Source of the DNA: a candidate division FCPU426 bacterium
GTDB lineage: Bacteria; Oederibacteriota; PGYV01; Palsa-1178
Assembly (NCBI GenBank): GCA_003167475.1
Contig: PMTB01000268.1
Span: 1-40,411, forward strand
Reading direction: 5' to 3'
Length of the DNA: 40,411 nt
Part shown: piece after piece, positions 5,640-38,448 of the stretch
How the letters are laid out: each line of letters opens with the position of its first letter
Position numbering within the stretch: the first letter of the stretch is position 1
Translations under genes and position numbers: made by a program
Notes under the pieces: model-generated
What the model saw: the letters and a program-made list of their open reading frames with translations, nothing else
Told to the model about the DNA's origin: nothing
Database searches by the model: none

Positions 5640-5831
5640 ACCCGGAATTGCGCCGTTGACCGCGGAAATGGATTTTTTCATCAACGGACTAATGTTTTCA
5701 GGCCCCCGTCTTTTTGATAATACATCCATCCTGTTTATTGTTGTATCGCCGGCGCACTTATGATATTATTACTCATGGGGGATACAAAAAACTTTTGATT
5801 ATTTTCTAAAATATCATTCAGGGAGGATTAA

Positions 5832-6800: not shown

Positions 6801-7031
6801 GTTTTATTACCCCGGGTATTTGACAACCGGGGTTTTTGCGTGTTGTATAAATAATATCCCCGGAATTTCAAACTAAAATCACACATCCGACCCGCCACGG
6901 TCATACTTTTAACGGCGGAAAAAGTGTCAGTTTAATGGGGAATACAGTCATGCTCCCTGAAGGGGTTTAATTGTATATTAAATGCAGCCGCCCTACACAA
7001 GGCCGGTTAAATACACTTTTGGGAGGTAATT

Positions 7032-8734: not shown

Positions 8735-11700
8735 TTGAAAAATAACACTAAAACCGGCAGGCTGCTTTCATCCAATCAGTTGTTTTTTATGTTTTTGTCC
8801 TTGCTGTTATTTTTACCTGTTTTATCATCCGCGACAACCTGGACCAATGTCGGCTCCCCAGGGTTTTCAGTTGGCACTTCGAACTATCCCACGCTTAAAG
8901 TTTACAACAGCGTCCCTTATGTATCTTTCATGGACGCGGCCAGCAACTCGAAAACATCGGTCATGAGGTATTTGGCCGGTTCCTGGCAGTATGTGGGCGC
9001 CCCCGGAATATCAGCCGGCACGTCGCAGTATGTTTCAATGGATATAGACCAGGCAAACGGGAACATATATATAGCCTATCAGGACAGCGCAAATGGAAAC
9101 AGGCTCAGTGTTATGAAATATGACGGGACCTCGTGGGGTTATGTCGGGGCCCCGGGATTTTCTTCCGGCGCGGTATATGTGGCGCTGCCTTTTGTGCGTA
9201 ATGGAATTCTTTATGTTTTTTGCGACGACAACCAGGGGTCAGTATATAAATTTAACGGGTCCAGCTGGGCGCTGGCGGCGCCGCAGGGATTTATCACAAG
9301 CGCTTCGGACTATTCTTTTTTTGTGGCTGACGATCTCACCATGTATGCCGCGTACAAGGATTTTAACAACTCGAGCAAAATATCCGTGCAAAAATCAAGC
9401 GGTTTGTCCTGGACCTATGTCGGCGGCTCGCCGGGCATCACGCCCGGGGCGGCGCAGGCAAGTTCAATATGGATAGATAACGGGACGCCCTACCTGGCGT
9501 ACTCGGACCAGCTTAACGCAAGCAGACTTTCCGTGATGAAGTTTGACGGCTCGTCGTGGGGATATGTCGGAGCGCAGGATTTTTCAGGGGCGGCCGCGTC
9601 TTTTGTTTCGCTGTTTATGTACAACGGGACCCCGTTTGTCGGGTTTCAGGACAGCGCGAACGGGAACGGTGCTTCTGTCATGAAATTTGACGGGACTTCA
9701 TGGGGATATGTGGGCACACCGGGATTCTCGGCAGGCCTTGTATGGTTCACTTCGCTTTACGTGAACCTCGGAACGCCCATCATCGCGTATATGGACAACG
9801 CGTACAGCGCCATGGATACGGTCATGAGTTACGGGCCGTTGACGGGGGTGGATACTCCCACTTTTACTTGCACCATAACACCCACGCCGACTTCCACGGG
9901 CACGCAGTGCGTACTTCTGCCTGTGTCGACAATAACCTATCCGGGAACGGCTTTCACAAACAGCGCTTCGTATATTTCAGGAACCGCCTTTGCGGCCTGC
10001 GGCACCATCACGCAGGTTGACGTTTCAATATATTCGGCTCCGCTCGGCCAGTACTGGAACGGTCTCACATGGCAGGCCGTGCAGTTCTGGGTTCCGGCAA
10101 CGGTCGCAATAGGATGGATATATAATTTTACGCCGCCGTCCGACGGGCAGTACACGATACGCAGCAGGGCTCACGATTCTTCAGGCAATATAGAAATTCC
10201 CGGCGCGGGTATAATGCTCAACTACGACCACACTGTCCCGTTATCTGTCATTACTTCGCCTTCAAACAATGTTTACTACAACACCATCCCGCCGAATTTC
10301 GCCGGCACAGCGGCTGATACGGGTTCGGGAGTGGGGAAAGTACGCCTAATGCTTTACAACATAACCAATGACGTATACTGGGACGGCTCCAGTTGGATAC
10401 CGTTCGCGACCCAGTGGTTTGACGCGTCAGGGACGAACAGCTGGTTTTATTCCTCGGCCAATCCCGGATGGACATCCGGAAGCTACGATTTCGCGTCCGA
10501 GGCAGTGGATAATGCGGGGAACACCCAGGCCACACTGACAACAGGGGTGAACCACATTAGTTTTATTTTTGACAACACCGCGCCCGCAAGCGCGATAAGT
10601 TATCCCATAAACTCATCCACGCTCCCGAGCCTGACAAATATTTCCGGAACGGTTACGGAGAACACAGACGGAAGCGGATTATCGACATCCGGTGACGCTT
10701 TGCAAATATATATATATAACCTCACGGATAACGTCTACTACGACGGCGTCAGCGGTTGGACAGCGGCCCAGACATGGATAAACACAAACGTATTATGCAC
10801 AGCCTGCGTATCAAGCGGATGGACCTACGCCGTATCTGACTCCATCTGGATCTCCGGGAAAACATACCAGATAATGGCAAGGGGAAAAGACAAGCTTGGA
10901 AATACGGAAACAACAGGCGCATGGGTGGATTTTACGTTCCTTCCGCTTACTGCGACGTATACTGTCACAATTACCCCTACATTTACACAGACACCGACCC
11001 GTACCGTGACCCCGACACTAACCATAACGCCCACGTCCTGCGTGAGGCTTGACACTTCTTTTAACGGAACAGGGTTCGTGACACTCAACGGCGGCGGGAC
11101 GGGCGGGTCCGCAAATGATTTTGGTTTTGACCTGAAACTGGACGGATCCGGCCGCATAATTTTAGCCGGAGTCCGGTATAACGGGACAAATGGCGATATG
11201 GCCCTCTGGAGGTTTAACAGCAACGGGACATTGGACACCACCTTCAACGGAGGCGCCGGCTATGTGATGAACAACGGCACGGCCGGTGGAAATGGAGCCG
11301 ACGCAGCCAATGCTGTTGTAATAGATTCTTCAGGCAGGCTCGTCGCCTGCGGGTACAGCACAAATGCCACCGCTTATCAGAGCATGGTTATATGGAGGTA
11401 TAATAGCGACGGCACGCCGGATACATCTTTTAACGGAACGGGTTATATCACGCGCAGCGGCACGGCTGGAGGAACGGCAAGTGACGGCGGAACGGACCTG
11501 AAGATTGACAGGCTTGGCAGAATAACGGTATGCGGTTACAGCACAGCTTTGAGCGGGGATACATACATGGCAATCTGGAGATATTTAAGCGACGGCACCC
11601 CAGATACATCGTTCAACGGTACGGGTTTTGTGACGAACCACAACGCGGCCGGCGGTAACGGTTCGGACTACGGGAGCGCCATGGCAATTGACGCCAGTGA

Positions 11701-36724: not shown

Positions 36725-36801
36725 GTATGTAACCCCGGGTTTTTATATAGTTTATAGTGTGAATTTAACATTTAAATTCAAAATTTAAACTTAAATTTGT
36801 C

Positions 36802-36945
36802 CTATTTGGGCCTTGTAAGGGCCTTACGTCCCTTGCGGCGCCTGGCATTGATGACCCTTCTGCCGTTCTTTGTGAGCATTCTTTTTCTGAAGCCGTGTTT
36901 CTTTTTTGCTTTTCTTCTATTGGGCTGAAACGTCCTTTTTGGCAT
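36802..36945 (-). CDS. rpmH: 50S ribosomal protein L34
   Basis: [23 protein letters not shown]...RRRKGRKAL. Confidence 0.98.
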
Positions 36946-36997
36946 CTTTTCTCTCCGTTTTATATAGAATATAAGGGTTTTGTAAAAAACCGTAAGA

Positions 36998-37026
36998 ATT
37001 ATAAAGGAATAAGGCGTATGTGTCAA
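36998..37026 (-). promoter_or_regulatory. Consensus sigma70 promoter of the rpmH operon
   Basis: TTGACA-17 bp-TATAAT on the minus strand. Confidence 0.85.
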
Positions 37027-37104
37027 TAGTAAAGGTATGTCAATGGTCCATGGTACAAAGGTCCGGTGTCCAAGGAAAATGAGGCAAAAACAGACGCGTT
37101 TTAT

Positions 37105-37133
37105 TTGACTTTGAGTGATTAAGCGGCTATACT
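37105..37133 (+). promoter_or_regulatory. Divergent sigma70 promoter
   Basis: TTGACT-17 bp-TATACT. Confidence 0.7.
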
Positions 37134-37173
37134 TGGCCTAATTCACATTCAAATTAAGGAAGGAGGTGAATAT

Positions 37174-37590
37174 ATGAAAAAAATGTTAATATTGGTTTTA
37201 TCGCTGGTTTTGACGGCTTCCGTGGCTTTTGCGCAGGAGAAAGCGGCTGCGGCTCCTGAAAAAGCCGTACAAATGGAAGGGACCATCATAGACAACGCTT
37301 GCGCCACGGCTAATAAGGCAAAACTTCCCGAATTCATCAAGACACATCCCAAATCATGCGCCTTAATGCCGAACTGCGTCAAGAGCGGGTATTCTTTGTA
37401 CCTGCCGGACGGCACTTTAAAAGCTTTTGACAAAACAAGCAACGTAAAGATCGAGATGTTCCTTAAGAAAAAAGCGAGCAGGCTCGATGTCATGCTGACC
37501 GTCAAGGAAAAGAACGGGGAACTTCAATTAATAACTATAATGAACTCCATGAAAAAAACCGCGCCTGCAAAGACCGCGGCAAAGGCGTAA
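37174..37590 (+). CDS. Exported hypothetical protein with Cys/His motif
   Basis: Signal peptide ending AFA; IDNAC...HPKSCALMPNCVKSGY; very strong AAGGAGGTG SD. Confidence 0.8.
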   Translation: MKKMLILVLSLVLTASVAFAQEKAAAAPEKAVQMEGTIIDNACATANKAKLPEFIKTHPKSCALMPNCVKSGYSLYLPDGTLKAFDKTSNVKIEMFLKKKASRLDVMLTVKEKNGELQLITIMNSMKKTAPAKTAAKA

Positions 37591-37609
37591 TCTGAATGTT
37601 TTGATTTAC

Positions 37610-37638
37610 GGAACTTCCGGGGTCCGCCATTCGTCTAA
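37610..37638 (+). promoter_or_regulatory. sigmaE/ECF-type promoter
   Basis: GGAACTT-16 bp-GTCTAA, matching the RpoE/AlgU-type consensus. Confidence 0.7.
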
Positions 37639-37643
37639 TTTTT

Positions 37644-37753
37644 GTAGGTCTCAAAAACCTATTCCCCGGGAGTTTCCCTACCCCTCCCAAACCCCTTATA
37701 CTCCCGGGGATTCTAAAAAAATCACCCCGGCCGCAAACGGCCGGGGTTTTTTT
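37644..37753 (+). ncRNA. Candidate ~110-nt small regulatory RNA with C-rich loop
   Basis: Bounded by the ECF promoter and a terminator; hairpin TAGGT/ACCTA; 11-bp stem TCCCCGGGAGT/ACTCCCGGGGA with a 26-nt C-rich loop; no credible ORF inside. Confidence 0.6.
37724..37753 (+). terminator. Intrinsic terminator
   Basis: ACCCCGGCCG-CAAA-CGGCCGGGGT followed by a T run. Confidence 0.9.
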
Positions 37754-37754
37754 A

Positions 37755-37835
37755 TCTGTTCTGTGTTATCTGTTCTATGTTCTATGTTTTAACGCCCTTC
37801 AAACACAGAACACAGAACAGAGAACACAGAACAAA
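37755..37835. repeat. Inverted heptamer tandem-repeat array
   Basis: About five TNTGTTC units facing about five GAACANA units. Confidence 0.85.
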
Positions 37836-37899
37836 CCGAAAAATCCTTTACAACAAACTCCCCGTTATGATATATTGAAAAAAAACGGGAGGCGTCAAA

Positions 37900-38346
37900 A
37901 TGGATAATTTAAACATCAGGGAAAACACTGCGGCTTGCGGAATAGATTGTTTTAACTGTGAATTTTTCCACACCAATATTCAGGGATTTTTTGAGACCAT
38001 GGACCCCCAGCGCAAGGCGGGATTTTTGGCCAGGGGCGCCACGGTTGAAAAATTGAGCTGCAAAGGCTGCAGGCTCGACGGCTGCAAGATGCTTGGGGGC
38101 GCCTGCGAAACCCTCAAATGCATAAAGGAAAAAGGCCATGAGTTCTGCTATGAGTGCGCTTCTTTTCCGTGCTCCAAACTCCAGCCGCTTGCCGAAGGCG
38201 CCGACAGGTACCCGCACAATTTGAAAGTATATAACCTCATGCGCATTAAGAACGTGGGAGTAGAGGCATGGGCTAAGGAAACCACAGAGATAAGGAAAAA
38301 ATATTTTAAAGGGAAGTTCATGGTAGGCGCGGGCCCGCAGATATAG
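37900..38346 (+). CDS. DUF3795-like Cys-rich (Fe-S/Zn) protein
   Basis: ACGIDCFNC, CKGCR, C..LKC and FCYECASFPC motifs. Confidence 0.85.
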   Translation: MDNLNIRENTAACGIDCFNCEFFHTNIQGFFETMDPQRKAGFLARGATVEKLSCKGCRLDGCKMLGGACETLKCIKEKGHEFCYECASFPCSKLQPLAEGADRYPHNLKVYNLMRIKNVGVEAWAKETTEIRKKYFKGKFMVGAGPQI

Positions 38347-38448
38347 CCGGAACAGTAATTGGACCAACTTTTGAACATTTAAACAATAAACAGCGGCGTG
38401 GTATCTTGTTGTTGCGAGGGAAATTTTAAAATATAAATGGGATGTTTT

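Follow-up and report, generated by a model that had tools for sequence, protein, structure and literature searches.

Positions 37610-37754 of the window (the whole 40,411-nt stretch of DNA that was analysed) raise the question of whether a hairpin with a C-rich loop belongs to a small RNA gene of its own and, if so, what would switch that gene on and what its RNA would act upon. An earlier note, made from the letters alone, had proposed an undescribed envelope-stress RNA. The window's genome (G000) comprises 2.75 Mb in 281 contigs, with 48% G+C, and is 86.6% complete. The left neighbour in the window is the rpmH-rnpA-yidD-yidC operon. The features of the locus are as follows.

37174-37590, + strand: gene for a protein of 138 aa that looks secreted (N-terminus like a signal peptide); context only, outside the small RNA
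37610-37616, + strand: -35 box GGAACTT of the ECF-type promoter (window sequence)
37632-37638, + strand: -10 box CGTCTAA of the ECF-type promoter (window sequence)
37644-37662, + strand: small 5′ hairpin of 6 bp, 37644-37649 with 37657-37662 (fold)
37663-37710, + strand: C-loop hairpin that defines the family (fold; covariance models)
37681-37699, + strand: conserved loop core CCCCTCCCAAACCCCTTAT, the proposed seed (order-wide conservation)
37724-37754, + strand: intrinsic terminator with a 10-bp stem (9 G-C pairs), a 4-nt loop and a U-run (fold and terminator scan)

Judged by comparison of sequences, it is highly probable that this is a real, ECF-linked gene for a structured RNA. The full explanation, in which 37610-37754 encodes, as a gene of its own, a non-coding RNA of ~110 nt that acts by pairing of its loop with ribosome-binding sites (RBSs), is fairly probable.

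A probable ECF-type promoter and its regulon

The motif GGAACTT-N16-GTCTAA lies exactly at 37610-37638, where the earlier note had placed it, and all of the other features that it described are likewise present. A 16-nt spacer separates GGAACTT (37610-37616) from GTCTAA (37633-37638). A genome-wide pattern count found 14 GAAC-N18-GTCTAA sites in G000, compared to 4, 0, 1, 2, 0, 0, and 0 sites at control spacings of 17, 19, 16, 20, 15, 21, and 25. The box is more than a chance match, since the count is specific to the spacing (14 vs 0-4), and other promoter-like sites of this kind, which the note had suggested looking for, do exist. The GTCTAA is preceded by a C in 13/14 of the G000 sites. The pattern GAAC-N17-CGTCTAA has 13 matches in G000, 12 in G005, 11 each in G002 and G007, 10 each in G004 and G010, nine in G006, five each in G001 and G003, and 0-4 in the remaining genomes. 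Read backward, the same pattern gave 0-2 matches per genome, and with one N too many it gave 0-3 (0 in G000). The motif is enriched in the family to which G000 belongs, with 5-12 sites in each of seven other family genomes.

One of the G000 sites is directly 5′ of a sigma factor gene (C51:1851-2327), in a genome with 15 Sigma70_r2 matches in total. The gene product has Sigma70_r2 and r4_2 domains and scores 98.1 bits with TIGR02937 (cut-off 42.9). The RpoE equivalog model gave 82.5 bits vs the 236 of that model, so the predicted protein is assigned to the ECF superfamily and is not an RpoE equivalog. Of the sigmaE/ECF promoter claimed earlier, comparison supports an ECF-type promoter with an envelope-type regulon, and an ECF sigma gene does stand behind the same box; the sigma factor is not RpoE itself. 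The sigma gene is followed by a zf-HC2 anti-sigma gene and an LTXXQ (CpxP/Spy-like) gene. Also found behind motif sites are genes for two OEP/TolC proteins, an AcrB-type transporter, DnaJ, a Wzy_C O-antigen ligase, a further LTXXQ protein, an NHL-repeat protein, and small proteins whose N-termini resemble signal peptides. Judged by predicted domains, this gene set is of the kind expected in an envelope-stress regulon, its own sigma gene being among those behind the box. We propose that an ECF sigma factor recognizes GGAAC(TT)-N16-(C)GTCTAA before the small RNA, and that it is the product of the C51 gene that lies behind the same box, together with the genes for a zf-HC2 anti-sigma factor and a periplasmic LTXXQ protein. 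Transcription would start ~6-8 nt after the -10 box, near 37644-37646, and end at the terminator (37724-37754), yielding an RNA of ~110 nt.

Structure of the RNA and its hairpin family

Folded as + strand RNA, the segment 37640-37755 has an energy of -50.5 kcal/mol (z = -7.07), and 0/200 shuffles fold as well. The minus strand of the same segment has a z of -3.87. The small hairpin, the perfect 11-bp stem with its loop, and the strong terminator of the earlier description all appear in the fold. The stem of the C-loop hairpin (37663-37673 with 37700-37710) encloses 26 unpaired nt at 37674-37699, UUCCCUACCCCUCCCAAACCCCUUAU, which the RNA would present as a single-stranded loop. The terminator stem (37724-37733 with 37738-37747) is followed by TTTTTTT, in line with the criteria for Rho-independent termination. 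The scanner scored this terminator on both strands because an A-run upstream and a U-run downstream flank the stem; there is no converging gene. A 63-aa ORF with a TTG start (37601-37792) begins upstream of the promoter and spans the stems that covary as RNA.

The loop is not confined to the window. A 21-nt stretch beginning at 37681 recurs exactly at C86:9982-10002 in the same genome, on a different stem and with its own terminator, and BLAST picked up the loop core many times in 40 relatives. All 30 of the CCTCCCAAA sites in the fetched loci are enclosed by a helix of 9-19 bp, 29 of them by at least 10 bp, and the stem sequences are unrelated. The same helix search at random sites (n = 3000) found helices of at least 10 bp at 6.2% and of at least 9 bp at 14.8%. 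Covariance models were built stepwise from three (R1), 18 (R2), and 35 (R3) sequences, with locus L036 excluded from the seeds as doubtful. A MAFFT alignment of the hairpins was not used for the models, as its stems were out of register.

In an alignment of 50 matches (38 distinct sequences), all nine modelled pairs changed on both sides, 94.8% of cells were paired vs 35-50% with the partners slid, and the covariation score was 0.749 vs 0.18 in shuffles; this alignment was fitted to the model and so favours structure, while the helix count at the CCTCCCAAA sites is independent of it. The stem covariation that the note had proposed as a check is therefore present in the homologs. About 19 loop bases are nearly invariant across ten families of the order, the core CCCCUCCCAAACCCCUUAU is conserved order-wide, and the stems change freely. 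R3 detects the family in 21/24 genomes of the order, with 1-5 matches per genome, and in 17/17 of those with completeness ≥90% and contamination ≤5%. Among the 99 species genomes that made up the phylum set, it is found in 0/75 outside the order. R2 gave 17/24 in an order-only search and 0/75 outside. R2 gives the window copy 61.2 bits and R3 gives it 57.9 bits, matches that follow by construction from its place in the seed. It has the characters by which the family is defined, a stem of at least 9 bp and a 25-40-nt loop with the core CCCCUCCCAAA(A)CCCC, and independent support for its membership comes from the other copies, which have different stems and the same loop.

The G000 copies matched by the covariance models are as follows.

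C250:37665-37708: the window copy
C86:9966-10009: copy with the exact loop recurrence
C77:3418-3467: third copy
C77:12701-12752, - strand: sigma-70-class sibling, with orthologs L022, L023, L024, L031, L033, L070, and L120
C138:15511-15558: copy 15 nt after a stop codon

With five copies, the hairpin is formally multicopy, which the earlier note had named as grounds for setting its reading aside, and a different repeat, the heptad arrays described below, lies immediately downstream. Both would suit an element without function, either a repeat or a hairpin that arose by chance near an accidental promoter-like match. The copies have a common loop and no common stem, however, the opposite of what a mobile repeat would show, so we regard them as paralogous RNA genes. 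The covariation at 9/9 modelled pairs, the restriction to one clade (21/24 order genomes), and a promoter that four other genomes, from two genera, keep at the syntenic site also run counter to a repeat or chance origin, which is very improbable. In our proposal the core CCCCUCCCAAACCCCUUAU is common to up to five sibling RNAs per genome, which would be expressed from different promoters.

Genomic context and sibling copies

We did not find a terminator in the window between the stop codon of the 138-aa gene (37590) and the promoter and hairpin of the small RNA, so the hairpin should also ride in the 3′ end of the mRNA of that gene, and this mRNA should end at the terminator of the small RNA. 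The 138-aa gene has a sigma-70-like promoter of its own at 37105-37133, and its product has no match to a Pfam family. The absence of a terminator from 37590 to the hairpin would fit a cis element, i.e., the 3′ UTR or terminator region of the 138-aa gene, or the leader of the downstream DUF3795 gene, with no independent transcript of consequence. In G004 a homolog of the 138-aa protein (66% identity) is again encoded next to the hairpin, here on its downstream side, ~400 nt away on the same strand, an arrangement that would also fit a cis element. The promoter of the G004 copy is 57 nt before the hairpin, and rpmH is ~1.3 kb upstream.

The relatives point the other way. In G002, G005, G006, and G007 the promoter and hairpin are ~170 nt from rpmH and divergent from it, and the 138-aa gene is absent between the two. 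The syntenic site next to rpmH is thus conserved in four other genomes of two genera, with the spacer free to vary. The ortholog in G002, a congener, is 89% identical over the RNA, with GGAACTT and CGTCTAA intact, a different spacer, and the same loop. Its 5′ hairpin keeps the stem and has a changed loop, and a U-run directly 3′ of the C-loop hairpin replaces the separate terminator. The next gene downstream of the RNA in G002 is convergent. Because the unit stands without the 138-aa gene in four genomes and has a convergent neighbour in G002, the RNA is more than a 3′ UTR of the 37174 gene, and it is not a leader. The self-contained ~110-nt non-coding unit of the earlier note is supported in this way, by a promoter and hairpin conserved apart from the 138-aa gene.

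A seventh ECF-type copy is found in G018, a member of another family of the order, where it does not adjoin rpmH. Across all seven ECF-type loci the AAC of the -35 box and CGTCTAAT of the -10 box are invariant, and the 18 intervening positions from AAC up to GTCTAA vary freely. Promoter and loop core are thus both conserved in relatives, a point on which the earlier note had made its case depend. Invariant boxes around a free spacer argue against a cis element, and within the window the strong terminator and a separate sigma-70-like promoter at 37847-37876 part the RNA from the DUF3795 gene. G001, of the same genus and 94% complete, has only a sigma-70-class sibling.

We also looked at public contigs and runs. 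DNA sequencing runs from peat and soil habitats contain the locus. The exact loop pattern was found in 10 stretches of public genome contigs and in 18 stretches of public metagenome contigs. Seven of the latter have a helix of at least 12 bp, all with the ECF box; they repeat the sequences of G002, G005, G006, and G007 and add no diversity. The other 11 have helices of at most 9 bp and look like chance matches. When contigs from four sequencing runs (two of RNA, two of unknown kind) were compared with 36800-38400, none covered 37556-37771; as these are contigs, this has no bearing on expression either way. One contig of an RNA run covers rpmH (36858-37037).

The ECF box is upstream in seven of the 48 distinct family sites. 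A widespread class of siblings has instead a TTGACA/TATAAT-type promoter, a conserved 5′ hairpin of the AUCAC..GUGAU type, a single-stranded stretch resembling CUCUUUAAA, the C-loop hairpin, and a terminator. Besides the G000 example on C77, members of this class are found in G001, G002, G023, and other members of the family of G023. Some family copies lie 20-50 nt before start codons, and some directly after stop codons with a U-run. At L037, L038, and L039 (G022:C90, G023:C108, and G012:C2) the C-loop hairpin opens the transcript, directly behind a TTGCAA-N17-TATAAT box, and is followed after ~50 nt by a TPP riboswitch (Rfam 70.1 bits in L037). Locus L063 (G009:C54, ~67580-68065) has three tandem C-loop hairpins ~227 nt apart, each followed by a U-run, and the third loop has diverged. 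Because copies occupy leader-like, stop-codon-proximal, and pre-riboswitch positions, the C-loop module may also, or instead, act in cis. Such leader- or terminator-like copies, together with the U-run within 16 nt of the stem in 27/48 distinct sites, are further points in favour of a cis element; set against the conservation around rpmH, they leave that reading of the window copy improbable.

A second repeat adjoins the locus. Arrays of three to six (N)AGAACA heptads give 32 strand-hits in G000, in the window and at ~20 other loci. Most have an inverted counterpart some tens of bases upstream, with which they would form a long hairpin, and they are nearly always intergenic, mostly ending within ~30 nt of a start codon. 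The window array spans 37745-37846, with arms at ~37751-37783 and ~37801-37834, and the segment 37802-37834 matches many contigs with unrelated flanks in all four sequencing runs. The Rfam scan of this region returned only sub-threshold, miRNA-like noise. The array may be a regulator-binding array or a REP-like element.

Mode of action and relation to known RNAs

The loop has three C-runs, which are complementary to the GGAGG/GGGAGG RBSs used in G000. The target sites named in the earlier note exist: TTTGGGAGG is found at 7018-7026, and GGGAGG precedes the starts at 2955 and 5832. The pairing with these sites, which rank 140, 570, and 592 of 2586 start regions, is not above chance, and the names "lipoprotein" and "barrel" given to the three genes were not confirmed by Pfam, which names none of their proteins. 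For these ranks, ORFs were called crudely (2611 in all) and the 26-nt loop was run through RNAduplex against the 2586 start regions. The real loop paired at -18 kcal/mol or lower with 129/2586 regions and eight shuffled loops with 68-217. The scan was discarded as uninformative, the real loop being no better than the eight shuffles, and its top hits included several spurious ORFs, among them one that lies antisense to a sibling RNA gene. No neighbouring gene ranked better than 896 of the 2586 start regions. Outside the RNA genes, TTTGGGAGG occurs 14 times in G000, compared to ~21 expected for a random 9-mer.

Two G-rich sites on minus strands in G000 (C82, ~10870-10887, and C275, ~5781-5798) have 12 nt complementary to the loop core and lie just after TATAAT-like boxes. 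A terminator ~45 nt after the C275 site suggests that it may be a tiny RNA. Both were dropped as loop partners, as the pattern occurs in 0/23 other genomes of the order.

The RNA was compared with known families. At gathering thresholds, Rfam found only a tRNA elsewhere in the window and nothing at the small RNA locus, and all 58 matches (E ≤ 10) of a permissive scan of 37400-37950 were below threshold. No Rfam family was found at the C-loop sites of 17 further family loci. The suggestion of an undescribed RNA accordingly came through the Rfam check put forward in the note, with no family reaching threshold at the locus.

The closest known design is that of cuckoo/CcsR. In these RNAs, 2-4 adjacent hairpins each carry one C-rich, anti-SD-like motif, CCUCCUCCC, in the loop, and the stems vary by compensatory change (PMC4615179). 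The likeness to CcsR1-4 (alpha-r14; RF02791; Alphaproteobacteria) extends to a conserved C-rich anti-SD-like loop, variable and compensating stems, and sibling copies, some of them in tandem (as in G009 here). The loop here is CCCCUCCCAAACCCCUUAU, however, and not CCUCCUCCC, and each RNA has one C-loop hairpin rather than 2-4. The lineage also differs, and the promoter here is ECF-type. The CcsR1 model (RF02791) gave 16.6 bits at the window locus, against a gathering threshold of 65.3, and the RNA is not a member. A conserved loop on compensating stems is a likeness in working to cuckoo/CcsR, not membership.

The sigmaE-dependent RNAs of enterobacteria (MicA, RybB, MicL) resemble this RNA in that its gene, by the promoter motif, would be controlled, along with envelope genes, by an ECF sigma factor. 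MicA, RybB, and MicL have their seed at a single-stranded 5′ end and depend on Hfq for pairing with mRNAs of outer-membrane proteins or lipoproteins. Here the seed would be in a hairpin loop, the sigma factor is not an RpoE equivalog, and we did not find an Hfq gene in G000 (86.6% complete). The promoter of MicL lies behind an upstream gene with no terminator between, and the RNA shares the 3′ end of the mRNA; the RNA here is likewise behind the 138-aa gene with no terminator between. MicA and RybB had no Rfam match at E ≤ 10, and MicC scored 19 vs 90 bits.

C-runs in unpaired regions, with presumed pairing to G-rich RBSs, are also a feature of the 6C RNA of Actinobacteria. RsaE/RoxS and RNAIII of Firmicutes are alike in having several such C-runs. 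All of these differ from the present RNA in phylum, architecture, and promoter type, and it is not a member of any of them: RsaE/RoxS, RNAIII, and 6C are absent from the 58 Rfam matches at E ≤ 10. The Betaproteobacteria toxic small RNAs are short hairpin RNAs with pyrimidine-rich loops. Their model (RF02278) gave 20.1 bits against a gathering threshold of 50, and the RNA does not belong to this family either. In S. aureus, the accessible C-rich loops of SprD, RNAIII, and RsaE are described as the target-recognition sites (PMC11188477).

On the model of cuckoo/CcsR and the C-rich-loop RNAs of S. aureus, we favour translational repression by pairing of the loop with Shine-Dalgarno sequences. By analogy with these families, action as an anti-SD base-pairing regulator is somewhat probable. 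Acting in trans, the C-rich loop would pair with the G-rich ribosome-binding regions of mRNAs, block translation or alter the stability of the mRNA, and so add a post-transcriptional arm to the envelope-stress regulon.

The invariant loop, at 19 nt, is longer than a generic anti-SD seed needs to be, which leaves room for a partner other than Shine-Dalgarno sequences. The conserved loop could be a docking site for a protein or the ribosome rather than an antisense seed, with the siblings serving as decoys, sponges, or transcript tags. The ~19 near-invariant bases over ten families exceed what SD pairing needs, the same module appears in small RNA-like units, 5′ leaders, and 3′ ends, and neither a preferred mRNA partner in the start-region scan nor Hfq was found. 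On the other hand, there is no candidate binding protein at hand, the known C-rich-loop families act via base pairing, and the loop is complementary to the GGAGG/GGGAGG RBSs of G000. We consider a docking site unlikely. A further form of this idea is that the 19-nt loop serves as a modular address tag, new in kind, which one conserved partner, either protein or ribosomal site, would read in a lineage that apparently lacks Hfq; this we regard as doubtful. It is equally doubtful that such a tag, one loop on varying stems, is wired to ECF, sigma-70, leader (including pre-TPP), and 3′-end inputs. If true, the result would be an order-wide post-transcriptional network with a single shared recognition element.

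Under the preferred reading, that of an antisense loop, the kinds of RNA involved are known (ECF-dependent small RNAs, and C-rich-loop anti-SD small RNAs with siblings), and the family, loop, and lineage are new. Among the literature matches listed for the loop motif there were only eukaryotic or unrelated subjects, supplements being outside the scope of that search, and the papers returned for anti-Shine-Dalgarno small RNAs in Spirochaetes were, judged by title and abstract, not about an RNA of this sort. The hairpins very probably represent a previously undescribed small-RNA family in which the same C-rich loop is carried on different stems. The comparison with enterobacteria suggests that small RNAs became coupled to ECF envelope-stress responses independently, here in an RNA of different design with a C-rich loop as seed. 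Hardly any regulatory RNAs are known from uncultured bacterial lineages. In this case comparison alone was enough to yield a complete small RNA gene with promoter, structure, and terminator, the sigma regulon to which it would belong, and a clade-wide covarying family, and the two covariance models R2 and R3 can now be used to annotate the family.
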